The position numbers and the translations under genes are program-made. A DNA stretch of 64,000 bases. It comes from Chloroflexota bacterium. Lineage in GTDB: Bacteria > Chloroflexota > Limnocylindria > Limnocylindrales > CSP1-4. The stretch spans positions 2,728-66,727 of the forward strand of contig JBHOQO010000096.1 of assembly GCA_042408925.1 (NCBI GenBank), given 5' to 3'. How positions within the stretch are numbered: the stretch's first letter is position 1; every line of letters begins with the position of its first letter. The notes beneath the pieces were generated by a model. That model ran no database searches. It saw only the letters and a program-made list of their open reading frames with translations, and was not told the origin of the DNA. Of this stretch, positions 23,126-36,076 are shown piece after piece.

Positions 23126-24022
23126 CTACTCCCGGCGCCGGAAGCTCGCCGCGCCGACCGCGAGCATGACGAACCCGAAGAGGACGAGGATCCCGAGCTC
23201 GAGCCCCACCGGCAGGACCCGGTCGAAGATCGTCAACCCGAGCGACTCAACGAACGACGCCGGCAGCGATTCGCCGAGGGCGATCCGGCGGAGCGGGTCC
23301 ATCCCGTACGTCACCGGGTCGATCCGGCTCAGGACCGCCATCCAGTCGGGGACGCCCCGGAGCGGGAAGAGCGACCCCGAGAGGAAGAACATCGGCATGA
23401 GCAGGAAGTTCATGACGATCTGGAAGCCCTGCATCGTCGTCATCCGCGAGGCGATCGCGACGCCCATCGCCGAGAGGGCGAAGGCGAGGACGAAGAGGGC
23501 GACCGCGAGGGCGACGACGGTGCCGGGCCCCAGATCGACGCCGACGACCGGGGCGAGGACGAGGACAAGGAGCCCCTGGAGCATCGCCTGGGTCGCCCCG
23601 CCGAGGGTCTTGCCGACGGCGACCGCGGAGCGGTCGACCGGGGCGACGAGGATCTCCTTGAGGAAGCCGAACTCGCGGTCCCAGACGATCGACATCGCCC
23701 CGAAGACGGCGCTGAAGAGGACGGCCATCCCGACGACGCCCGGGTAGACGAACTCGGTGTAGCCGACCGAACCGACCCCGCCGCCGGTACCCCCGCCCGG
23801 GCTGAAGGCGCCGCCGATCGACGAGCCGAGCCCGGCGCCGAAGACGACGAGGAAGAGGAGGGGCTGGGCGAGCGAGCCGACGATCCGGGCCCGGTCCCGC
23901 CAGAAGCGAAGGAGGTCACGGTACCAGACGACGGCCACGCCGCGGGCGAAGGCCGCCGTCCGGCCGGAGATCGGGCGCGGGGCCGTCGCCGCCCGCGGTT
24001 GGAGCAGCCCGTTCGTCGTCAT
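23126..24022 (-). CDS. ABC-2 family transporter permease
   Basis: Six TM helices and an ABC-2 signature region. Overlaps the upstream ATPase stop. Confidence 0.75.
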   Translation of the reverse strand: MTTNGLLQPRAATAPRPISGRTAAFARGVAVVWYRDLLRFWRDRARIVGSLAQPLLFLVVFGAGLGSSIGGAFSPGGGTGGGVGSVGYTEFVYPGVVGMAVLFSAVFGAMSIVWDREFGFLKEILVAPVDRSAVAVGKTLGGATQAMLQGLLVLVLAPVVGVDLGPGTVVALAVALFVLAFALSAMGVAIASRMTTMQGFQIVMNFLLMPMFFLSGSLFPLRGVPDWMAVLSRIDPVTYGMDPLRRIALGESLPASFVESLGLTIFDRVLPVGLELGILVLFGFVMLAVGAASFRRRE

Positions 24023-25044
24023 CGTCGCCCTCCCCAGGCTCGGTGCATCATCCGCATCCGGTCGGTCGCCCCGGGGGCTTCGTCCCGGATCGCGTGGCCG
24101 GTCAGCTTCAAGAAGACGTCGTCGAGGCTCGGGCGGTGGGCGGCGACCGAGACGACGGGGACCGTCAGCTCCCGGACGAGCTTCGGGATGATCGCCGCCC
24201 CGTCGGCGACCTCAATCCGGAGGGCGCCGCCGTCGGCCCGGGCCTCGAGGCCGAAGCGCTCCCGGAGCTGGGCGGCCGCGGCGGCGTCGTCCTCGGTGCG
24301 CAGCTCGACGACGTCGCCCCCGACCAGCGACTTGAGTTCCGCCGGGGTGCCGAGGGCGACGATCCGCCCCCCGTCGATGATCGCAATCCGATCGCACTCC
24401 TCGGCCTCGTCCATGTAGTGGGTCGTCATGAAGAGCGTGACCCCCTCGACGTCCCGGAGCCGGCGGAGGTAGCCCCAGACGTGCCGGCGCGTCTGGGGAT
24501 CGAGGCCGATCGTCGGTTCGTCGAGGAAGAGGACCTCCGGGGTGTGGAGCATGCCGCGGGCGATCTCGAGCCGGCGCCGCATCCCGCCCGAGAACGTCGA
24601 CACCTGGGCGTCGGCCCGATCGGCGAGCTCGACCATCTCGAGGGCCCGCGCGATCCGCTCGCGCCGCTCCCGCCCCGGGACGCCGTAGATGACGGCGTGG
24701 AAGAAGAGGTTCTCCCGGGCGGTCAGCTGGGCGTCGAGGGACGGGTCCTGGAAGACGAGGCCGATCCGGGCCCGGACCGCGTCGGGGTGGCGGTCGACGT
24801 CGAAGCCTGCGACCGTCGCCCGGCCGGCCGTCGGGCGAAGGAGCGTGCAGAGCATGTTGATCGTCGTCGTCTTCCCGGCTCCGTTCGGCCCGAGGAAGCC
24901 GAAGATCTCCCCGCGCCGGACGGCGAGGTCGACGCCGCGGACGGCCTCGAGGGTGCCGAAGCGGCGGGTGAGGCCGACCGTCTCAATGACGGGGTCGCCG
25001 AGGGCCGGGCTGTTTGAAGCGGCAGCGGCCGCCGGTGCGCTCAC
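24019..25044 (-). CDS. ABC transporter ATP-binding protein (DrrA-like)
   Basis: GFLGPNGAGKTTTINML, FSGGMRRRLEIARGML, LFLDEPTIGLDP. Confidence 0.9.
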   Translation of the reverse strand: MSAPAAAAASNSPALGDPVIETVGLTRRFGTLEAVRGVDLAVRRGEIFGFLGPNGAGKTTTINMLCTLLRPTAGRATVAGFDVDRHPDAVRARIGLVFQDPSLDAQLTARENLFFHAVIYGVPGRERRERIARALEMVELADRADAQVSTFSGGMRRRLEIARGMLHTPEVLFLDEPTIGLDPQTRRHVWGYLRRLRDVEGVTLFMTTHYMDEAEECDRIAIIDGGRIVALGTPAELKSLVGGDVVELRTEDDAAAAAQLRERFGLEARADGGALRIEVADGAAIIPKLVRELTVPVVSVAAHRPSLDDVFLKLTGHAIRDEAPGATDRMRMMHRAWGGRR

Positions 25045-25643
25045 GGCCGGGCCTCCGGCGTGTCACCGGGCTCGCGCGTGCCGGACGCCTCCGGCGCCGC
25101 GTTGCCCCCGCCCACCCCGGCGTCGTCCTCGGCGAGGATCCGGTAGAGCTGGCGGCGGGCGTCACGGAGGAGCGCCTCGGCTCGCGAGCGCGCCCCCGCC
25201 GAGCCGACCCGTTCGACCTGGACGGCGGCTGCCACGAGCTGGGCGGCAAGGACCCGGAGCTCCTCGGCGCCCGGCTCGCCGCGGGCTGCGAAAAACCGTT
25301 CGGCGTGCGTCGTCCGGACGGCTTCGGCGGCCCGCCGTCCCTCGTCGGTGAGGGCATACGTCCGTCGACCCTCTCGCTCTTCGCTCCGGACGAGCCCCTC
25401 GTCCTCGAGCTGCTGGAGGGTCGGGTAGATGGAGCCGGCGCTCGGCCGCCAAACGCCGCCGCTCCTGGCTTCGAGGTCCTGGATGATCTGATAGCCGTGC
25501 TTCGGACCGTCGATCAGGGACCGGAGGACCGCCACCCGGACGATCCCCCGCTTGACGGCGGGGCCGCTCCCGAACGGCCCGAAGGCGGCTCGCATGGCAT
25601 GGCGCCAGAACGGCCACGCGGGACTGTGGTGATCCATCGGCAC
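25041..25643 (-). CDS. PadR family transcriptional regulator
   Basis: LRSLIDGPKHGYQIIQDLEARSGGVWRPSAGSIYPTLQQLEDEGLV is a PadR winged HTH. First of a three-gene operon with the ABC ATPase and permease. Confidence 0.8.
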   Translation of the reverse strand: MPMDHHSPAWPFWRHAMRAAFGPFGSGPAVKRGIVRVAVLRSLIDGPKHGYQIIQDLEARSGGVWRPSAGSIYPTLQQLEDEGLVRSEEREGRRTYALTDEGRRAAEAVRTTHAERFFAARGEPGAEELRVLAAQLVAAAVQVERVGSAGARSRAEALLRDARRQLYRILAEDDAGVGGGNAAPEASGTREPGDTPEARP

Positions 25644-25808
25644 TCCTCGCTGCTCGTGAAGCGACCAGCCCTTCGGCGTGCCAACACGATATATCGCGAT
25701 GATCGGGACGTCAAGGGCTAGCGGTCGGCGGGGACGAGGTCGACCGCAGCCCGGCCGGCACGGCGGCGCAGCCGAACGGCTCCTCGACGCGCCGAGGGCC
25801 GGCGCGGT

Positions 25809-26135
25809 CTAGCTCGAGGGCCCGAGGGACGACGGTCGCCGGGCCTGGCGTCGGATCCGCCAGGCGGCACGCTCGGCGGCGGCGGTTGCGGCGGCGGTCC
25901 CGACGGCGACGCCGAGATCGAACGGCAGGGCGACCTCGAACCCGAAGAGGCCGACCGTGGGCCCGACCGACAGGCCAAGGCGGTGCCCGACGAGGTAGAG
26001 GGCGAGGAACGAAGCGGCGATCGGCGGGATGGCAGCGACCCGGGACGGAGGCCCGACGACGCGCCAGGCGGCGACCCCCGAGGCGACGGAAACGACGGAG
26101 AAGAAGCCGACGAGGGCGTAGGCGTTGGCAGGCAT
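25809..26135 (-). CDS. Small hypothetical membrane protein
   Basis: 108 aa with three predicted TM helices. No homology recognised. Confidence 0.35.
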   Translation of the reverse strand: MPANAYALVGFFSVVSVASGVAAWRVVGPPSRVAAIPPIAASFLALYLVGHRLGLSVGPTVGLFGFEVALPFDLGVAVGTAAATAAAERAAWRIRRQARRPSSLGPSS

Positions 26136-26231
26136 GCCGCTAGGCTATCGCAGCGTCCGCGCGGCAGGCTCGGCCCTCGGCGCCGATCCTGGGTAATCGG
26201 GTGGTGAGCAGCGCCCGTCATCCTGCCGCCC

Positions 26232-26885
26232 ATGCCGAAACGCCCCGCCGTCGTTGAGCGAGGTCGAACTCGCGGCCACGAGACGCTGCGGCTCGTCGCC
26301 CGTGAGTTGCGGTTTGCCCGACTCGACCGCGGCCTGACCCAGGAAGCGCTGGCTGACGCCCTCGGGATCGACCGCTCGACCGTCAGCCGGATCGAGCACG
26401 GTCGGGTCGAGGACCTCTCCATCGTGGCCGCGACGCAGCTGCTGGCCGCCGTCGGCCTGGAGCTGTCGATCCGCGCCTACCCGGCCGGCCCGCCGCTTCG
26501 TGACGCCGCGCACGCCAACCTGCTCCGGCGGTTTCGGGCACGCCTCCACCGCTCCCTCGGCTGGGCGACCGAGGTCCCGCTGCCGATCCCCGGCGATCTT
26601 CGTGCCTGGGACGCGCTCGTCAGCGGCCAGGGTTGGCGCTGCGGAGTCGAGGCCGAGACCGGACCGCGCGACGGACAGGCGCTCGAACGCCGAATCGCCC
26701 TGAAGCAGCGCGACGGAGGCGTCGACTACGTCGTCCTGCTCCTCCTCGAGGGCCGCCGCAACCGAACCTTCGTGCGGGAATACGCCGACGTCCTACAGGC
26801 CCGGTTCCCGGTCCCCGGGAGGCGCGCCCTCGAGCTCCTCGGTGCCGGCGTTGCCCCGGGCGGGAACGCGGTGATCCTCCTCTGA
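26232..26885 (+). CDS. XRE family helix-turn-helix transcriptional regulator
   Basis: LTQEALADALGIDRSTVSRIEHGR is an HTH_3 motif. It has a C-terminal domain of unknown function. Confidence 0.7.
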   Translation: MPKRPAVVERGRTRGHETLRLVARELRFARLDRGLTQEALADALGIDRSTVSRIEHGRVEDLSIVAATQLLAAVGLELSIRAYPAGPPLRDAAHANLLRRFRARLHRSLGWATEVPLPIPGDLRAWDALVSGQGWRCGVEAETGPRDGQALERRIALKQRDGGVDYVVLLLLEGRRNRTFVREYADVLQARFPVPGRRALELLGAGVAPGGNAVILL

Positions 26886-27018
26886 GCGAGGCCGGCCCGG
26901 ACATGACCCCCATCCGAGGAGAGGACGACCGCAGAGGGGCAGGAGCCGGAACCGGCGGACGGCTCGCGGAGAGCGCGGAGCCGAACGGCCTCGCCCGCGG
27001 GTCGAGCCCGGGGCGGCC

Positions 27019-27324
27019 GCGTGCACCCGGTGCACATTCTGACGGCCGCTACCGCCGCCCGGGCGGCTGGCATGCTGATTCTGTGAACCTGGTGCACGCC
27101 GTCGGCCGGTCGGGGGAGACCGGACCGGCCGGCTGCTGAGGACGTGCACGGGACGCACGCCGTCGACCCGGGAGGTGCCCCTCGGCCCCGGAATGTGCAC
27201 CCCACGCACGCCGCCGCCGGCAACGTGCACCGGGTGCACGGAACCGACAGGGGCGCGACCGGCGGGACTGGCCGGACCGTGCCGCCGCGCCGGCAACGTG
27301 CACCGGGTGCACGGTACCGACAGG
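27019..27324. repeat. Array of GTGCAC-containing palindromes: three copies of a 17-bp palindrome CGTGCACC-N-GGTGCACG plus three half-site-like units
   Basis: Palindrome copies at 27019-27035, 27223-27239 and 27297-27313. The last two sit inside an approx 35-bp direct repeat CCGGCAACGTGCACCGGGTGCACGG(A/T)ACCGACAGGG. Related GTGCACG...ACGCACGCC units lie at about 27090, 27143 and 27194. Confidence 0.7.
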
Positions 27325-27340
27325 GTCGTCCACCGGGGCC

Positions 27341-27410
27341 GGGCGCGGGCCGCCTCGTCCGGGCGCGCACCGCCTCGTCCGGGCGCGCACCGCCTCGTCC
27401 GGGCGCGGGC
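27341..27410. repeat. 20-bp tandem repeat (CACCGCCTCGTCCGGGCGCG) x3.5 immediately 3' of the rpoD stop
   Basis: Seen directly: ...gggccgcctcgtccgggcgcg caccgcctcgtccgggcgcg caccgcctcgtccgggcgcg ggccc, then the stop at 27412. Confidence 0.8.
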
Positions 27411-27411
27411 C

Positions 27412-29139
27412 CTACTCCAGGTAGTCCTTCAGCTTCCGCGATCGACTCGGGTGGCGGAGCTTTCGGAGCGCCTTCGCCTCGATCTGGCGGATCCGCTCCC
27501 GCGTCACGTTGAACTCCTTGCCCACCTCCTCGAGGGTCCGGGCCCGCCCGTCTTCGAGGCCGAACCGGAGCTGCAGGACCCGCCGCTCCCGACCGGTGAG
27601 CGAACCCAGGACAGCCTCGACCTGCTCGCGGAGGAGTTGGCGCGAGGCCGCGTCGGCAGGCGCCACCGCCCCGCGATCCTCGATGAAGTCGCCGAGGTGG
27701 GAGTCCTCCTCCTCGCCGACCGGAGCCTCGAGCGAGACCGGCTCCTGGCTCACCTTCATGATCTCCCGGACCCGCTCGGGCCCGACCGGCTGCTCCTGAC
27801 CCCGCGACATCGCCTCGGCGATCTCCTCGAGCGTGGGCTCCCGCCCCAGATCCTGGAGAAGCTGGCGGGAGACCCGCATGAGGCGGTTGATCGTCTCGAC
27901 CATGTGGACCGGGATCCGGATCGTCCGAGCCTGGTCGGCGATCGCCCGGGTGATCGCCTGCCGGATCCACCAGGTCGCGTACGTCGAGAACTTGTAGCCC
28001 TTTTCGTACTCGAACTTCTCGACCGCCCGGATGAGCCCGATGTTCCCCTCCTGGATGAGGTCGAGGAAGCTCATCCCCCGGCCGATGTACTTCTTCGCGA
28101 TCGAGACGACGAGCCGCAGGTTCGCGGCCGTGAGCTGCTCACGGGCCTCTCGCCCGAGGCGGACGACCTCGCCCTTCCGGTGGAGGAGCTTCGTGCCCGC
28201 CGGGACCGACGGGTCGTAGCCCATCCGTCGGAGGAGCTCGGCGTCGTGGCCGGCCCGGATCCAGCGTTCGAGGGCCGGGTAGGCGACGGCCTCCCGGGTC
28301 CAGTCGTAGATCGCCCGGAGGCTCGGGTTGTCCCGGGACTCGACGTCGCCGCTGTGGACGGCCTGGTACGCCCAATCGAGGAGCGGCAGGAACGTCTCCG
28401 CGGACGGGGCGGCGACGTAGGCGGCGAGGAGTCGCCGGGCCTGCCGGAGGTGGGCCCGGGTCGGCTCGTGGCTCGTCGCCCGGACCGCCCGCTGGAGGTG
28501 GACGTCGGGCGGCGGACCGAAGAGCTCCCTCGCCTCCGGTGCCGCAAGGGCGGCCCGAACGATCCGGTGGGCGTCCTCGGCGAAGGGCAGTCGGTACTGC
28601 TCGCGGGTCGCCCGGGTCGCCGCCTCGGTCCGGTGGAGCGTCCATTCGTGGAGGCTGACGAGCGCCTTCCACGGCGCCTCGGCCATCTGCTCACCGAGCT
28701 CGATCGCCTTGGCGAGGACGACCTCCTCCTCGGCCGTCAGGAGCGGAACCTTCCCGATCTCCTTGAGATACATCCGGACCGGGTCGTCGATCCCGACGAC
28801 GTCGGCCTCGAGGTCCTCGAGCTCCTCGGGGCTCGGCTCCTCGAGGGTGACCGCATCGAGGTCGCCGGGTCCCTCGTCCGCCTCGTCGTACCCTCCGTCC
28901 ACGTCGGCTTCGATGGCCGCGGCGACGACGGCGTCGGGGACCTCGGCGAGCGGCTCGGTTCCGAGCTCGGGATCGAGCTCCCCCTCGAGCTCGCCCGGGG
29001 CCGGCTCGTCCCGGTCGGCCGCTCCTCCCCCGCGCCGCCGCCGCGACGCCGCCAGGCGCGCCTCCGCCAGCTCGGTCGCCGACGGTCGCGGCCGTCGGAG
29101 CAGCCCCTCGACGAGCCGCCGATCGAGCGGGTCGGACAT
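27412..29139 (-). CDS. rpoD: Primary-type RNA polymerase sigma factor (RpoD/SigA) with a large non-conserved-region insertion
   Basis: Region 1.2 ([22 protein letters not shown]), 2.x ([32 protein letters not shown]), 3 and 4.2 ([29 protein letters not shown]). Start at the internal Met (MSDPLDRR). Confidence 0.9.
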
Positions 29140-29218
29140 CGTCAGCCTCGGACGCTCCGCGGATCCCGGCCCGCGAGCCCCCGGCACTTCGGTCGCCCGG
29201 CCGCCACGGCGCTCCTCC

Positions 29219-31229
29219 CTACGGCACCGCGGCCGCCGGGCGACGAGCGGGGTCCGGGCTCCGCCGGGCCAGGAGGCGGGCCTGCTCACGGCGGCGGTGG
29301 AGCGAGCGCCAGGCCTCGTGGATCTGGCGCTCCTGGGCGAGGAGCTCGGTCATCGCCGCCCGGTCGCCGCGGCGCTCCGCCTCGGCCTGGGCAGCCCGGT
29401 TGTACTCGCTCCGCTCGGCGAGCGCCTCGGCCTCGAGGTTGAGGACGAGGTTCTCCAGTTCGTAGACCTGACGCTCGGGGGACAGGAGCCGCGGATCGGG
29501 TCCCTCGATGGCGAGGACGGCCGTGGCGAGGGCTCGAACCTCCGGCTCGAGCGCGGCCCGCAGCCGCTCGAGGTCGAAGGCCCCGGGGACCCCGGCGTCG
29601 TCCGGTGCCCGCATCTCGACGATCGCCCGGTAGAGCTCCCGAGCGAGGGTCGACGGCAGCTGGTCGGGGCCGAGCTCCTCGACGGCCCGGAGCTGGAGCT
29701 CGGGGACGAGGAGCAGGAGGCGGAGGAGCTCGACCTCGCTCGGACTGACCGCCCGGACGACCTCGCGCGGGTGGAGCTCCTCCGACGCCGCCCGGACCGC
29801 CTCGAGGGTCAGCCGGATCCCGCCGTGGTCGGTGTCCCCGGCCGCCCGCCCGATCGCGGTCCGGCTCCGGAGCGCCTCCCGGAGGACGTCGACGTCGGTC
29901 GCCGCGCGGCGGGCGAGGTGGAGGAGCGCCCCGTCGCGGACCGTCGGGTCGGCGACCCGCCGCAGGACCGGCAGGACCGCGTCGACGAGCCGCCGTCGGC
30001 CGTCGGCCGTCCGGACGTCGACCCGGGCGGCGTGGACGTCGACGAGGTACTCGAGGATGCCGACCGGCGCCGCGACGGCCGCCGCCCAGATCTCCGGCGA
30101 GTCGCGGATGACCTCGTCCGGATCCCGGCCCTCGGGCAGCCGAACGACGCCGACGTCGGTGAGCCCGAACTCCGCCCCCGCCGTCTGGACCTCCGAGATC
30201 AGGGCGGTCAGCTCGCTGACCCCGAAGGCGCCGGCGCTCTGGCCGGCCGGATCGACGTCGTAGGCGAGGGCGACCCGCCGGGCATAGCGGCCGAGGATCG
30301 CGACCTGGCCGGGGGTGAGGGCCGTCCCGAGGGAGGCGACGACGTTCTCGAAGCCGGCCTGGTGGGCCATGAGGGCGTCGGTATAGCCCTCGACGAGGAC
30401 GGCCTGGCCGCTCCGCCGGATCGCCGCCTTCGCCCGGTCGATGAGATAGAGGGTTCGGCTCTTGTCGAAGAGCGGCGTCGCCGGCGAGTTCAGGTACTTG
30501 GGCCCGACGTCCCGCCGACCCGCCTCGCCGCGCCCGCCCTCACCGGTGCCCGAGCCGGACCCGGGCTCCGACCCCTCGAGGATCCGACCCCCGAGCCCGG
30601 TCGGCGCGCCGGACGCGTCCCGGATCGGGAAGATGATCCGGGACCGGAAGCGGTCGTAGGCGCCCCGACCGCCGGGCCGCGGCACGGTCAGCCCCGCGGC
30701 GGCGAGCTCCTCGGGGGTGATCCCGCGCCGCCGCCCGAGCTCCCGGCTCAGCGTGTCCCAACCGGCCGGCGCCCAGCCAAGCTGGAAGCGCTCGATCGTC
30801 GCGTCGCTGAAGCCCCGGCGACGGAGATAGTCGAGGGCGGGCTGGCCGACCCGATGACCGGTGAGGACGGCGTGGTAGAAGGCGATCGCCGTCTCGAGGA
30901 CCTCCCGAAGGCGCGCCCGCCGCCCGTCGTCCCGGCTCGGGCGCTCGTCCAGCTCGACCCCGGCCCGGGCCGCCAGCCGCCTGAGCGCCTCCGGAAAGCC
31001 GACCCCGTCCCGCTCCATCACGAAGCTGAAGACGTCACCGCCCTTCCCGCAGCCGAAGCACTTGTACGTGCCGCGAGCCGGGGTGACGACGAAGCTCGGC
31101 GTCTTCTCGGCGTGGAACGGACAAAGCCCCTTGAACGTCGTCCCGGCCTTTCGGAGCGCGACGGTCTCGCCGACGACGTCGACGATGGAGAGTCTGCTCT
31201 TGATCTCGGCCGCTGCGCCGACCGCCAAT
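29219..31229 (-). CDS. dnaG: DNA primase DnaG
   Basis: CHC2 zinc finger ([37 protein letters not shown]) and TOPRIM ([30 protein letters not shown]). The 5' 220 codons of the ORF are low-complexity antisense. The only candidate start before the first conserved residues is a TTG near 31229. Confidence 0.85.
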
Positions 31230-32344: not shown

Positions 32345-32460
32345 CGGCGCCCCGCTCACCCCCCGGACGCCGCGCGGCTCACCCGCCGGACGGCGCCCCG
32401 CTCAACAGCGGGACGGCGCGCGGCTCACCCCCCGGACGGCGCCAGCCTCCCTGCCGAGCG
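32345..32460. repeat. Approx 23-bp tandem repeat (ACGGCGCSCSGCTCACCCCCCGG) x5 spanning the convergent gap and the 3' end of the MutS-like A gene
   Basis: Seen directly: ctgacggcgccccgctcaccccccgg / acgccgcgcggctcacccgccgg / acggcgccccgctcaacagcggg / acggcgcgcggctcaccccccgg / acggcgccagcctccctgccgag. Confidence 0.75.
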
Positions 32461-33987
32461 GCCGTCGGTCGCCTCGGCCGGCTCGGGGTCCGCCCCGGCC
32501 TCGGCCCCGAAGACCCGGCGATAGACGTCGACACCGTGGCTCGAGCCCTCGGGCGCCCCGGGCACGATCCGGAACGTCCGCGTCCCGTCCGGGCGACGCT
32601 CGGCCCGCAGGAACCGGGTCCCGGCCCGGCCGGCTGTGGCGAGCCCCTCGGCGAGGTCGATGAGATGGGTCACGTAGGCGACCCGGACGTCCGAGTCGAC
32701 GAGCGCCTCGACGACGCCCCGAGCGATCGCCGACCCCTCGCGCTCGTTCGTGGAGCTGAACGACTCGTTGAGGAGGACGAGGTCACCGGGCTGGAGCCCA
32801 TCGACGATGGCGCGCATCCGGGCGAGCTCCTCGTCGAGCTTGCCGCGCCGGAGCGTCTCGTCCTCCTCCCGACTGAAGTGACTGACGACCCGCCGGGCGA
32901 GGGCCGCCCGGTAGGCCCGGGCGGGAACCGGGAGCCCGGCCGCCATGAGGAGCTGGGCCAGCCCGAGGCTCCGGAGGAACGTCGACTTGCCGCCCTGGTT
33001 CGCACCCGTCACGACGAGGAGCCGGGCACCGTCGGCCGCGAGGTCGTTGGCCACGACCGGCTCACCGAGCCTGAGGAGGAGCGCCGCGTCGCCGAGCGCC
33101 TCGGCCCGCAGGGCGAGCGAACCGACCGGCAGCGGCTCCGGCAGACAGGTCGGCCCGAGGGAGGAGAGCCGGGCCTGGAGGTTCACGGCCCCGAGGTAGA
33201 AGGCAACCTCGTCGCGGAGGAGCCGGAAGAAGTCGAGGACGTGGTCGGCCGACGCCGCCACCGCCGCCGCGGCAAGGCTCACGCCGCGACCGGTCAACTC
33301 GGCGAGGGCCCGGAAGCCGCTCTCGTCTCGATCGGGGACCTCGTAGACGTACGTCGAACCGTCGGAGAGACCGAGCCGCTCCCGCCAGCCCGGCCGGCCG
33401 ATCCGCCGCCGGAGGACGTAGTTCACCCCCCGGTTCCCGGCGCCGAGCTCGGCGGTGACGATGATTCCGTCGTCGAAGCGGAGTCGCCGGAGGTGACCCT
33501 CGACGGCCTCGAGGTACGGCTCGTCGAGCTCCCGGCAGAGCATCTCGAAGAGGGTCCGGAAGCCCTCGGAGGCGACGGCCGCGCGCCGTTCCTCGGCGAG
33601 CTGCCGCAGGCGGCGAAGGACGTCGACGAACTGGCCGATGACCTCGACCGACCGGCGGAGCACCGTCTCCGGGTGACGGCTCCAGAGGCCGCCGTAGACC
33701 CGCCGCTCCCGCTCGATCGCCTCGACGGCAAGGTCGTAGCACCGTCGCGGCGTCGTCGGGTCGGTGAGGCAGTCGGCGACGATCGCCTGCCGATACCGGA
33801 CGACGGCCGGATCGTCGGTCCCGGCGAGGACGACCGCCCGAGCGACTTCCGAGATCCGGCGGTCGCCGTCGGCCATCGCCTCGAAGAGGAGCTCGAGCCC
33901 GAGATCGTCGACGAGCGCCTGCTCGAGGGGATCGAGCTCGCGGTCGAGCTCGGCATCGCGGTCGGGGTAGAGGAGCCTGGGCTTCAT
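32425..33987 (-). CDS. MutS-family ATPase paralog A (MutS domain III/V only; no mismatch-binding, clamp or Smr domains)
   Basis: An internal Met of the 1188-aa ORF gives a 520-aa protein with Walker A GANQGGKSTFLRSLGL, the MutS ST-type motif and Walker B-like LVLLNESFSSTNEREG. Its ATG overlaps the stop of paralog B as ATGA. Confidence 0.8.
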   Translation of the reverse strand: MKPRLLYPDRDAELDRELDPLEQALVDDLGLELLFEAMADGDRRISEVARAVVLAGTDDPAVVRYRQAIVADCLTDPTTPRRCYDLAVEAIERERRVYGGLWSRHPETVLRRSVEVIGQFVDVLRRLRQLAEERRAAVASEGFRTLFEMLCRELDEPYLEAVEGHLRRLRFDDGIIVTAELGAGNRGVNYVLRRRIGRPGWRERLGLSDGSTYVYEVPDRDESGFRALAELTGRGVSLAAAAVAASADHVLDFFRLLRDEVAFYLGAVNLQARLSSLGPTCLPEPLPVGSLALRAEALGDAALLLRLGEPVVANDLAADGARLLVVTGANQGGKSTFLRSLGLAQLLMAAGLPVPARAYRAALARRVVSHFSREEDETLRRGKLDEELARMRAIVDGLQPGDLVLLNESFSSTNEREGSAIARGVVEALVDSDVRVAYVTHLIDLAEGLATAGRAGTRFLRAERRPDGTRTFRIVPGAPEGSSHGVDVYRRVFGAEAGADPEPAEATDGRSAGRLAPSGG

Positions 33988-35615
33988 CGGTGCCCGTTCT
34001 CCCGATCGGCGAGGGCGGCCCGGATCTGCTCGTACGTGAGGCCGTGCTTCGCGGCGAGGGCAACCGCGTAGGCCCGACCGTCGGCCGGCCGGCGCTCGAT
34101 CCGGTACGTCCGGATCGTGGGGTCGGCCGGGTCGACCCCGGCGACCATGCTGACGACGGCCGGCCCGAGGATGGCGAGCTCGTCGAGGAAGGTGACGCAG
34201 ACGACGAGCATGTCCCGGCCGGCCATCGTCCGGAGCATGACCCGGTTCAAGAAGAGGGCGTCGGTCGCCGACGTCGAGCTGAAGCTCTCGTTCATGACGA
34301 CGAGGCTCTCCGACGTCGCCGCCTCGAGGATCGCCCGGAAGCGCCGCAGGTCGCGCTCGAGCTTGCCCTCGAGGGTCGAGACGTCTTCGCGGCGCTCGAA
34401 GTGGGTCAGGATCCGATCGACGAGCGGGCAGCGAACCTCGCGACCGGGGACCGGGAGCCCGAGGGCGGCCAGATGGTGGAGCTGGCCGATCGCCCGGGCG
34501 AAGGTCGTCTTGCCGCCCTGGTTCGGACCCGAGACGACGACGATCCGCTCCGCTCCGGCGAGCTCGACGTCGTTCGTGACGATCCGCCCGCCGGCCGCGG
34601 CGAGCCCGTCGGCGAGGGCGAGGTCGAAAATCCCCCGCGCGCGCAGGGTTCGGTCGCCGGCGGCGACGACCGGATAGCAGAACGACAGGCCGCGGCCGCG
34701 GAGCCGCTCGACGTGCTCGAGGTAGGCGAGATAGAAGGCGACCTCCGCGTCGAAGCGTTCGACGACCGGGTCGACGAACGCGGCGTGGCGCTCGAGGACC
34801 GCCTCGACGTCGGCGAAGACCGCGGGGTGGAGCCGGACGACCCGGTCGAGGATCGCCGCCTCGACATGGTTCATCGTCGTGCTGCGGCCGACGTCGAAGC
34901 GGTACTCCTTCGTCGTCCCCTGCCGGAACTTCTCGAAGACGGCGAGGATCTCCGCGCCGTAGTCGGGCTCGCCGCGGTCGCGGGCGACGCGGATCCGGTT
35001 CCCGGAGATGTGGAGCCGGTAGCGGAGCTCGCCGAGGGCGGCGAGGACCCGCCCGACGTCGGCCTCGAGGGTGCGAAACCGCTCCGACGAGCGGTACTCC
35101 TCGATGAACGCCAGGATCCGACGGAACCCGGTCGACTGCGGCCGGCCGGCGGCGAGCCCCTCGGCAAGGCTCGCGACGGCCCGGCAATACGCGGCGGCGG
35201 CATCGAGGAACCAACGCGATCCCTCGTGCCGGTAGTAGGAATGGCGTGCCCGCCCGAGGCGGCGGCGGACGCCGTCCATCTCCGACCGGAATTCGCGGAC
35301 GACGGCGGCGATCTCCGGCCGCTCGAGGTCGCGGCAGACCGCCTGGCGGTACTCGATCGCGGCGACCCGATCCAGGGGCCGTTCGAACGCCGCCCGCAGC
35401 TCGGCGGCGGCCGATTCGTCCTGCCGACCGGCGAGAACCGCGTCGAACACCTGATCGAGCCGGAGATCGACGAGGGCATCGGCGGCGAGGGTATCGAGGG
35501 GCGACGGCGGCCCCTCGGGAACGACGTCCCAGAGGACGCTCGGCACGGCCTCGCCGAGCGCGTCCCGGGAGGCGTCCCGGGCTCGACGGCCGCGGGGCTC
35601 GAGCGCGCCGCTCAT
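33984..35615 (-). CDS. MutS-family ATPase paralog B (MutS domain III/V only)
   Basis: 543 aa: GPNQGGKTTFARAIGQL, LVVMNESFSSTSATDA, and a helical lever-like N-terminal half. Diverged from paralog A. The same N-E replacement of the Walker B D-E is present. Confidence 0.8.
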   Translation of the reverse strand: MSGALEPRGRRARDASRDALGEAVPSVLWDVVPEGPPSPLDTLAADALVDLRLDQVFDAVLAGRQDESAAAELRAAFERPLDRVAAIEYRQAVCRDLERPEIAAVVREFRSEMDGVRRRLGRARHSYYRHEGSRWFLDAAAAYCRAVASLAEGLAAGRPQSTGFRRILAFIEEYRSSERFRTLEADVGRVLAALGELRYRLHISGNRIRVARDRGEPDYGAEILAVFEKFRQGTTKEYRFDVGRSTTMNHVEAAILDRVVRLHPAVFADVEAVLERHAAFVDPVVERFDAEVAFYLAYLEHVERLRGRGLSFCYPVVAAGDRTLRARGIFDLALADGLAAAGGRIVTNDVELAGAERIVVVSGPNQGGKTTFARAIGQLHHLAALGLPVPGREVRCPLVDRILTHFERREDVSTLEGKLERDLRRFRAILEAATSESLVVMNESFSSTSATDALFLNRVMLRTMAGRDMLVVCVTFLDELAILGPAVVSMVAGVDPADPTIRTYRIERRPADGRAYAVALAAKHGLTYEQIRAALADRENGHR

Positions 35616-36076
35616 CGCCGACCTCCGTTCGATCGCGCGGTCGACGCAGCAGGCGACCCGTCAGGCTCGGGCGCCACCCCGAGCGATCGGGAGCGGGACC
35701 GCCGGGCGGGTCCGAGGGCTGCCGCGGCGGCCCGCCGGACGACGACGGGGCCTCCCGCCGCGAGCTCCAGGAGCCGGCCCCGGACCCGCGGCACGTCGGC
35801 GAAGGCACCGAGGGCGCGCGCCGCCGCCGCCGCCCGGTACGGATCGCTCGAGCCCGTCGCCTCGAGGAGCGGCCCGATCGCCCGCCGAGCTCCCCTCGCT
35901 CCGAGGATCTCGGCGGCGAGGACGGCCGTCTCGGTGTCGGGATGGCGGAGCGCCCAGACGAGTCGGTCGTCGAACGCCTCCTCGGTCGCAAGGGCGGCCC
36001 CGCAGCGCTCGCAGAAGGACGCCTCGAACGGGTTGTGGGCGTAGCACGCCGGGCAGTAGCGGACGAGATCCGTCAT
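35612..36076 (-). CDS. Zinc-ribbon plus HEAT-repeat (PBS-lyase-like) protein
   Basis: CPACYAHNPFEASFCERCG (CxxC...CxxC) followed by HEAT-like repeats (LRHPDTETAVLAAEILGARGARRAIGPLLEAT..DPYRAAAAARALG). ATGA overlap with MutS-like B. Confidence 0.65.
   Translation of the reverse strand: MTDLVRYCPACYAHNPFEASFCERCGAALATEEAFDDRLVWALRHPDTETAVLAAEILGARGARRAIGPLLEATGSSDPYRAAAAARALGAFADVPRVRGRLLELAAGGPVVVRRAAAAALGPARRSRSRSLGVAPEPDGSPAASTARSNGGRR

Follow-up and report, generated by a model that had tools for sequence, protein, structure and literature searches.

What is a row of GTGCAC palindromes doing between the gene of the principal sigma factor and its convergent neighbour? The question is raised by a stretch of 64,000 nucleotides (here called the window; G+C content 73%) from an uncultured member of the Chloroflexota, class Limnocylindria; its RpoD is 100% identical to a 575-aa protein at NCBI, and the best named relatives of this protein belong to 'Candidatus Limnocylindrales' (Chloroflexota). 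In the window, rpoD and a gene for a 217-aa protein with an XRE-type helix-turn-helix (HTH) domain (hereafter the XRE-type gene) converge on a gap of 526 bp (26886-27411), in which an initial annotation had noticed palindromes and tandem 20-mers and had proposed, among other possibilities, a binding array for a regulator or nucleoid protein. We find that these palindromes are genuine: five to six sites, conserved in evolution, are lined up on one helical face of the DNA downstream of rpoD. They probably form a cis-acting, phased array of operator-like sites (six in the window), which would be bound by dimers of the adjacent 217-aa protein and organised by them into a higher-order complex. The sites and the genes on either side are listed here with their positions in the window.

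26232-26885, plus strand: gene of the 217-aa protein (XRE-type HTH and C-terminal PD-(D/E)XK-like domain), the proposed binder of the array.
27021-27035, no strand assigned: site s1, GTGCACCCGGTGCAC, nearest to the stop codon of the XRE-type gene (offset +136).
27083-27097, no strand assigned: site s2, GTGAACCTGGTGCAC, one mismatch, 62 bp from s1.
27144-27158, no strand assigned: site s3, GTGCACGGGACGCAC, 61 bp from s2.
27195-27209, no strand assigned: site s4, GTGCACCCCACGCAC, 51 bp from s3; the site and the GAAT on its 5' side are the partner of s1 in an extended inverted repeat.
27225-27239, no strand assigned: site s5, GTGCACCGGGTGCAC, 30 bp from s4.
27298-27312, no strand assigned: site s6, GTGCACCGGGTGCAC, 73 bp from s5, an extra copy of the s5-type unit.
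27215-27328, plus strand: 41-nt direct repeat (family D1), two copies (27215-27255 and 27288-27328) with 95% identity.
27412-29139, minus strand: rpoD (principal sigma factor, 575 aa; stop codon 27412-27414), convergent with the XRE-type gene and given as context, not as a demonstrated functional partner.

The three 17-bp palindromes of the initial annotation are present, with coordinates off by at most 1 bp: the 17-mers begin at 27020, 27224 and 27297, and the first, which has a terminal A instead of G, is palindromic at 16 of 17 positions. Searched as GTGCAC-N3-GTGCAC, the motif occurs without mismatch at 27021, 27225 and 27298 and with one mismatch at 27083, i.e., four times at up to one mismatch, where 0.03 occurrences are expected from dinucleotide shuffles. 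Allowing two mismatches gives six sites (27021, 27083, 27144, 27195, 27225, 27298), all within 27021-27312. A genome-wide search for the palindrome had been proposed; within the scope of the 64-kb window, no further site with up to two mismatches was found, and the array is thus unique there. The relaxed core TGC-N7-GCA has four matches outside the array in the 64 kb, which is the chance level, and nine of the window's 11 GTGCAC hexamers fall in these 292 bp. The direct repeat described as approximately 35 bp long is real as well and measures 41 nt; its copies are s5 and s6 plus flanks, separated by unrelated DNA, and this extra s5-type unit is found once in the window and twice in a relative (L004, see below). 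The three further GTGCACG-type units correspond to the GTGCAC..ACGCACGCC units of repeat family D4. Furthermore, the gap contains no hidden gene: as the initial annotation had stated, there is no coding signal (codon-position GC is without signal across 26886-27411), and no open reading frame is common to the gaps of the window and L004.

The consensus of 133 distinct sites is Y-GTGC-RYCNGRY-GCAC-R, a 17-bp palindrome of which the window's GTGCAC-N3-GTGCAC is one realisation. The centres of GTGC and GCAC are 11 bp apart, so that the half-sites lie about one helical turn from each other. Judged from the related loci, the unit is less a direct repeat of GTGCAC than an inverted repeat, GTGC-N7-GCAC, whose inner positions are R/Y-degenerate.

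The relatives were compared across about 70 related loci; besides the individual contigs described below, 80 loci were drawn from Joint Genome Institute (JGI) metagenomes. The comparison of orthologous rpoD 3' regions suggested by the initial annotation bears out both the sites and their connection with the XRE-type gene. The metagenome contig L004 (RpoD 86% identical) has the same order of rpoD, gap and XRE-type gene, and its gap contains seven sites with spacings of 62, 61, 52, 30, 73 and 72 bp from the XRE-type gene side, as compared to 62, 61, 51, 30 and 73 bp in the window. In the pairwise alignment the sites line up, and the intervening DNA is largely scrambled. L005 and L006 (RpoD 80% identical) possess neither the XRE-type gene nor the array; there, rpoD is followed after 134 bp by a 108-aa gene that in the window lies beyond the XRE-type gene. 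Within 450 nt on the 3' side of the XRE-type gene, TGC-N7-GCA reaches 5.25 per kb, 13-fold more than in all other DNA of the same 69 loci (0.40 per kb), and occurs at 0.59 per kb in the 200 nt upstream of this gene and at 0.17 per kb inside it. At least one site is present in 49 and at least two in 40 of the 69 loci. When 12 loci are aligned, hardly any column is invariant outside the TGC/GCA cores of the half-sites in the five sites. Position and spacing of the sites are therefore conserved, and the spacers are free to change. In a 98% identical strain (L003), all five differences fall in non-site DNA and none in the three sites covered.

In most loci the array starts 14-140 nt past the stop codon of the XRE-type gene, and in at least 30 loci a convergent rpoD lies 180-1000 bp beyond this gene. 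On three long contigs encoding proteins with 64-73% identity, the gene is located 0.4-4 kb from rpoD-dnaG. L127 and L128 carry a peptidase-like gene and others between rpoD and the XRE-type gene, and the sites still lie directly 3' of the latter; the spacings on long contigs with a displaced gene are 62-61-51-30 and 62-63-50-30 bp. In six other loci (L147, L186, L189, L196, L198, L203), dnaG, rpoD and the XRE-type gene are co-directional instead of convergent. The gap between rpoD and the XRE-type gene, which here is upstream of the latter, holds sites in L186, L196 and L198, and the 30-bp site pair on the rpoD side in L186 suggests that the gene was flipped while the array kept its orientation relative to rpoD. 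A different repeated motif, CGTCCCACG, is present in this gap in L189, L203 and L147. The initial placement 'downstream of the principal sigma gene' is thus true for the window, but not in general: the array is separated from rpoD by other genes in L127 and L128, its place is upstream of the XRE-type gene in several of the six co-directional loci, and across the class it is linked to and goes with the XRE-type gene, not with rpoD as such. The absence from L005 and the many short contigs gave rise to the idea that gene and array are a mobile insertion; it was rejected because rpoD-dnaG synteny holds in >35 loci at 50-90% protein identity. The contigs L001 and L002, from two independent sequencing runs, have their 3' ends at the same base (27044 of the window), 9 nt past s1. 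An inversion polymorphism of the s1-s4 segment was considered and dropped, as the orientation is unchanged in L003, the only near-identical strain with sequence running through the segment.

The spacings of the sites are multiples of approximately 10.3 bp, and the sites therefore share one helical face. In the window, the cumulative positions of 0, 62, 123, 174, 204 and 277 bp, divided by 10.25, correspond to 0, 6.05, 12.0, 16.98, 19.9 and 27.0 turns. The distances between neighbouring sites in the relatives fall into classes of 30, 40, 50-52, 61-63, 69-73, 79-82 and 102-104 bp and, among the longer ones, of 111-112, 123-124, 154, 165-166, 196 and 205 bp, and no class deviates by more than about 2 bp from a multiple of 10.3 bp. 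The peak of a periodicity scan was at 10.3-10.4 bp (R = 0.83, n = 94, the counts being inflated by shared ancestry), and an independent scoring resulted in a period of 10.2 bp (R = 0.70, phase near 0). Because of this inflation, the argument for phasing rests on the differences between lineages, which amount to whole helical turns (e.g., 41, 50-52, 61-63 or 70-72 bp for s2-s3). The s4/s5 distance of 30 bp is the most conserved spacing in the family.

Which protein reads the sites? Their outermost base co-varies with residue 48 of the 217-aa protein, the first residue of its predicted recognition helix. If residue 48 is Arg or His, the outer base is G in 67 of 72 half-sites, and all ten loci have a G majority. 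With another residue at this position (A, P, G, V, I, E, S, Q), T predominates, G is found in 43 of 222 half-sites, and four of 30 loci have a G majority (locus-level Fisher test, 1.2e-6, uncorrected for phylogeny). One Gln48 locus has an outer A and one Gly48 locus an outer C. The outer base changes together at all sites of one locus, and in a neighbour-joining tree the combination of Arg/His with G appears in at least four separate places, beside sisters bearing T. The repressor of phage 434 touches the outermost base of its operator with Gln28, which is the first residue of helix 3, and the classical contacts are those of arginine with guanine and of a small or hydrophobic side chain with the thymine methyl group. 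As the outer base follows residue 48, the neighbour protein is the probable binder, and this co-variation is the strongest evidence for it.

The 217-aa protein belongs to a large family (1412 hits), the members of which almost always have 217 aa; a profile search of 1.8 billion representatives retrieved 1100 relatives, most of those listed being of approximately this length. The gene that the initial annotation had seen only as the convergent neighbour of rpoD can now be specified as an XRE-type HTH gene, as the N-terminal part (about residues 20-80) matches Pfam HTH_3 (E 5.4e-10) and HTH_31 (E 1.5e-9), both above the cut-offs. A profile search against the PDB and a Foldseek search matched this domain to HigA, HipB, controller proteins of restriction-modification (R-M) systems, SinR and 434 repressor. 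Structurally, it is closest to the R-M controller proteins, HipB and HigA, and its identity to C.BclI, C.Esp1396I and C.AhdI is 29-36%. The AlphaFold model (predicted local distance difference test score, pLDDT, 88) places the recognition helix at residues 48-55.

The C-terminal domain has about 130 aa; for residues 85-217, searches of Pfam, NCBIfam, PADLOC and the PDB sequences gave no match. Modelled alone (AlphaFold2, pLDDT 88, predicted template modelling score 0.83), it shows secondary structure elements in the order H-E-E-E-H-E. Nearly all top hits of Foldseek in the PDB are proteins of the PD-(D/E)XK type (YaeQ, Bax1, archaeal Hjc resolvases, EcoT38I, BspD6I, PaqCI, the nuclease domain of DdmD, SfsA), with weak scores (best E 5e-3). 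Among 37 sequences with 56-88% identity to the window protein, there is no variation at E114, D127, E140, E142, K158 and several arginines. The predicted structure is probably that of a PD-(D/E)XK fold, and the modelled domain is possibly catalytically competent.

The proposal of a binding array for a regulator or nucleoid protein is supported by these results: the sites are palindromic and helically phased, they keep their positions while the spacers drift, and their outer base co-varies with residue 48. We suggest that each 15-17-bp palindrome is bound by a dimer of the protein encoded next door, s1-s5 being the module conserved throughout the family and s6 an addition. With spacings of 62, 61, 51, 30 and 73 bp, the bound dimers would all be on one face of the helix and could assemble cooperatively into one nucleoprotein complex over about 220-290 bp, in which the DNA would presumably be looped or wrapped. 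As to what the complex may do, we would tentatively put first a barrier or insulator of protein that separates the dnaG-rpoD operon from the gene next to it, and which in the flipped-gene lineages would double as the gene's own operator. A unique site of chromosome organisation or segregation would rank second, and a site nicked or cut by the nuclease-like domain third.

Several points weigh against this reading. Twenty of the 69 loci have no exact match to the core, and a strict test for the full chain of five sites was passed by only six to eight loci. The residue-48 statistics, which carry no phylogenetic correction, have exceptions: G prevails in L155 (Ser48) and L201 (Ala48), and T is found in L142 (Gln48). 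Linkage and co-variation are our only grounds for assuming that the 217-aa protein itself binds the sites. Most loci, the window among them, have their sites 3' of the XRE-type gene and none at its promoter, so there is no obvious regulated promoter; XRE autoregulators are not usually arranged in this way. An autoregulatory operator at the gene's own promoter was looked for and not found, the operator-at-promoter arrangement being confined to the six flipped-gene loci. Moreover, the flanks of s1 and s4 undergo compensatory changes that a simple protein-site model does not predict and that could reflect a DNA or RNA stem (see below). Finally, a similar array in another Limnocylindrales genome (L022, see below) has no XRE-type gene nearby, and the binder may thus have other targets or be another protein.

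The alternative that survives best is a functional one and compatible with an array bound by the 217-aa protein: the sites might serve as a replication terminus or fork barrier (RTP/Ter) or as a centromere-like site (sopC/parS). We regard this as rather improbable. In sopB-sopC, parB-parS and rtp-IRI/IRII, the gene of the binding protein is followed by the array of its sites, and the same order is found here, together with a convergent-gene setting, an inverted pair (s1/s4) and an array that occurs once per locus. However, no gene for a ParA-, ParM- or TubZ-type NTPase is present beside the array, the cumulative GC skew over the 64 kb turns locally at several points, near 26 kb among others, and does not switch cleanly at 27 kb, and the nuclease-like domain has no counterpart in those systems.

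It is unlikely that the sites are read by a different protein, e.g. a global regulator or nucleoid-associated protein of the Limnocylindria, the XRE-type gene being merely a syntenic bystander. The position of the window sites at the 3' end of the XRE-type gene instead of its promoter would fit such a protein, and so would L022. In this contig (contig9 of the metagenome-assembled genome (MAG) FBaNitSoil1_24, Candidatus Limnocylindrales), three perfect GTGCAC-N3-GTGCAC sites, spaced by 72 and 71 bp, occupy positions 2081-2238 of an intergenic region between divergent genes, one of which is aspartate-kinase-like and has the sites upstream of it; the 8 kb covered contain no XRE-type gene. This array may also be a second target of the same binder. 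On the other hand, the outer base tracks residue 48 through at least four independent switches, the array follows the XRE-type gene when rpoD is displaced and vanishes with it (L005), and a global factor would predict other copies, of which the 64 kb contain none.

A structured nucleic acid would be the third possibility. In this case the gap would be transcribed into an RNA of about 250 nt (a 3' untranslated region of rpoD or of the XRE-type gene, or a small RNA), or would act as single-stranded DNA; the GUGC...GCAC units would be hairpins, and pairing of s1 with s4 would close a multi-branch structure. The feature that speaks most directly to it is the following.

27012-27218, no strand assigned: extended inverted repeat s1/s4, arms 27012-27039 and 27191-27218, 28 nt, 82% complementary.

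This inverted repeat is also present in L004, L127, L128, L151, L157, L168, L192 and L201, and the distance between the arms is 163-175 bp as a rule, reaching 216 bp in a few loci. The flanks on the 3' side of s1 and on the 5' side of s4 are reverse-complementary and change together (ATTC/GAAT as in the window, ACAA/TTGT, GTGT/ACAC, GTAA/TTAC, CAACGGTC/GACCGTTG). In the arms, 86% of the cells are paired, compared to 68% in shuffles, and the covariation score is 0.49, compared to 0.16 in shuffles and at most 0.18 when the arms are slid. In addition, the window gap folds better than shuffles on both strands (z = -4.2 and -4.5). These z-scores are, however, equal on the two strands, as palindromes alone would give, and Rfam has no family match in the gap at E < 1. 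Inner symmetric positions are complementary at about chance level (z = 1.7, 2.9 and 0.0), and G-T and A-C mismatches are equally frequent (22 vs 31, and 21 vs 18). The palindromes are therefore conserved as sequence and not as stems, and the hypothesis of one hairpin per palindrome was rejected on these complementarity statistics. The three long spacers have a mean fold z of about 0 on both strands in eight loci, so structured spacers were rejected as well; RNAalifold recovers only the palindromes and one long-range s1:s4 helix. Furthermore, spacing steps of approximately 10.3 bp between lineages are a property of duplex DNA and not of RNA, the outer base at all sites of a locus changes together and with the protein, and scans found no promoter-like or terminator-like sites in the gap. 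We therefore hold the structured 3' untranslated region or small RNA that the initial annotation had considered to be quite unlikely. The s1/s4 pair could represent extended, oppositely oriented sites for a second contact, perhaps by the nuclease-like domain, or its complementarity could stem from concerted evolution.

The tandem 20-mers were confirmed too, but are not part of the conserved element.

27339-27407, no strand assigned: tandem 20-mer (CCGGGCGCGCACCGCCTCGT), 3.5 copies, 95% match, ending 4 nt before the rpoD stop codon.

This repeat has no counterpart in L004, and its sequence is not conserved in the relatives. A structured terminator was ruled out for the same lack of conservation and because it folds no better than shuffles (z = +1.0). 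It is one instance of a broader pattern: 33 of 70 loci have GC-rich short tandem repeats of unrelated sequence (period 10-35 nt, 2-8 copies) up to 600 nt 3' of the XRE-type gene, for the most part past the array (e.g., L004 4100-4250, and many of L128-L208 at approximately 250-450 nt 3' of the gene). These repeats number 1.10 per kb in the 600 nt and 0.48 per kb elsewhere in the loci. We read them as unconstrained, slippage-prone filler; possibly they set length.

The weakest alternative, that the units are selfish palindromes of the repetitive extragenic palindromic (REP)/bacterial interspersed mosaic element (BIME) or miniature inverted-repeat transposable element (MITE) kind, or a decayed array like clustered regularly interspaced short palindromic repeats (CRISPR), which came to lie in the convergent gap by chance, is very improbable, although their extragenic location, their palindromic nature and the break of assemblies from two samples at the same base beside s1 recall such elements: there is neither a second copy in the 64-kb window nor a GTAG/CTAC tetranucleotide in the flanks of the sites, the units are orthologous with order and spacing fixed across a class, hairpin stems are not maintained, and, as to CRISPR, the shared unit is only 15-17 bp long and degenerate, the spacings of 30-73 bp have homologous lengths in the relatives, and the array has no cas genes beside it. 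The remnant of a repeat element, as the initial annotation had also envisaged, is thereby disfavoured.

The same comparison shows how little the bare motif says. A collection-wide scan for two units 40-70 nt apart returned >118 stretches, many of them genuine REP-like elements GTAGG-GTGCACTCCGTGCACC (Proteobacteria, Desulfobacterota), which as such speaks for a REP-like nature; the matches in other phyla have no related HTH gene nearby. Since the matches were mostly unrelated REP-like elements, 9-bp tandem arrays and other arrays, the bare motif is not diagnostic. The GTAGG-GTGCACTCCGTGCACC hairpins are dispersed in Desulfoluna spongiiphila, a Desulfobulbales MAG, Thiobacillus and Gammaproteobacteria MAGs, often as inverted pairs 73-81 bp apart (loci L012, L014, L021, L024, L028, L031-L033, L040, L043, L051 and L055, among others), and are a REP/BIME-like family that shares the GTGCAC-N3-GTGCAC core by convergence. 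In the Actinomycetota MAG LS2_sbin.26 (L050, L054, L056, L072, L086, L107), several contigs begin or end in long 9-bp tandem arrays, (GTGCACGGG)n or (GTGCACCCC)n, which may be telomere-like repeats or assembly break points.

The wider surroundings of the array in the window comprise genes for a 108-aa membrane protein, PadR and a DrrA-type ABC exporter, besides rpoD and dnaG. No methyltransferase gene was found near the array, and no cas-like gene among the neighbours. An Rfam scan of 24000-31000 with E up to 1 found nothing in the gap and, outside it, only an irrelevant match to an internal ribosome entry site. Two adjacent genes with MutS_V domains (MutS2-like paralogues; window 32425-35991, L005 1-2729) adjoin a luciferase-like monooxygenase gene and dnaG-rpoD, and this arrangement is kept in the relative L005.

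If the array is indeed bound by the protein encoded beside it, the module pairs a DNA-binding protein with its own set of sites in a form that can be read from sequence alone, and its variants would constitute a natural experiment on the recognition code (Arg or His at residue 48 for G, small or hydrophobic residues for T). A wrapped complex is indicated by how strictly the phasing keeps to 10.3 bp. The fusion of an HTH with a nuclease-like fold that has invariant residues of catalytic type, and sites that lie between convergent genes and not at a promoter, suggest a function different from classical repression, e.g. a transcription or replication barrier, chromosome organisation or site-specific DNA processing. 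The host class consists of abundant, uncultured Chloroflexota of soil and freshwater, in which gene regulation is almost unstudied. Literature searches found no description of such a module. More tentatively, and with considerable doubt on our side, one could think of the HTH-nuclease-fold protein and its phased five-site array as an undescribed chromosomal cis-acting machine, conserved beside dnaG-rpoD throughout the Limnocylindria, the wrapped complex of which would act beyond ordinary promoter control. It might be a dedicated protein roadblock to RNA or DNA polymerases where the macromolecular-synthesis operon ends, or a place of programmed DNA processing, where the PD-(D/E)XK domain would carry out nicking or recombination at the inverted repeat formed by the covarying s1 and s4 arms.

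Among known systems, REP/BIME elements (associated with REP-associated tyrosine transposases, RAYT) resemble the array as short, GC-rich extragenic palindromes between convergent genes, and REP hairpins of other phyla share the bare GTGCAC-N3-GTGCAC motif. In contrast to them, the element described here is non-dispersed, lacks GTAG/CTAC, does not maintain its stems and has a fixed orthologous position with phased spacing. The RTP/Ter system of Bacillus subtilis likewise has the gene of a small dimeric DNA-binding protein beside its own cluster of inverted repeats and a possible function as a polymerase barrier, but the replication terminator protein (RTP) is a winged-helix protein without a nuclease-like domain. 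The plasmid centromeres of F (sopB-sopC) and P1 (parB-parS) have an array of palindrome-containing repeats directly after the gene of the DNA-binding protein, and such repeat arrays nucleate a large nucleoprotein complex. They differ in that here there is no gene for a partner NTPase and the binder is not of the ParB or ribbon-helix-helix type; only the 15-17-bp cores are conserved, without tandem copies, and the location is chromosomal, next to dnaG-rpoD.

Closer are the controller (C) proteins of R-M systems with their C-boxes, with which the 217-aa protein shares the structure of the HTH, palindromic operators and the association with a fold of the restriction-endonuclease type. However, HTH and nuclease-like fold are here fused in one chain of 217 aa with no methyltransferase nearby, and five to six phased sites take the place of the OL/OR pair that precedes the C gene. 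Repressors of the phage 434/lambda type (XRE/Cro-CI) with OR1-3 and OL1-3 share with the present case a dimeric HTH protein (predicted here), palindromes of 14-17 bp, an outermost base read by the first residue of the recognition helix, and several sites with cooperativity and loops on the same face (again predicted here). Unlike in these phages, the five to six sites extend over 220-290 bp and are 3-7 helical turns apart rather than adjacent, the array lies at the 3' end of the gene in most loci, between convergent genes and with no promoter identified, a PD-(D/E)XK-like domain replaces a simple dimerisation domain, and the element is chromosomal and conserved class-wide instead of being phage-borne. 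As a palindromic operator array for an XRE-type dimer, the element is thus of an already known kind; unusual are the fused PD-(D/E)XK-like domain, the phased architecture of five sites over 220 bp, the placement at the 3' end of a gene and not at a promoter, the covariation in the inverted repeat s1/s4, and a neighbourhood that constantly includes the gene of the principal sigma factor.

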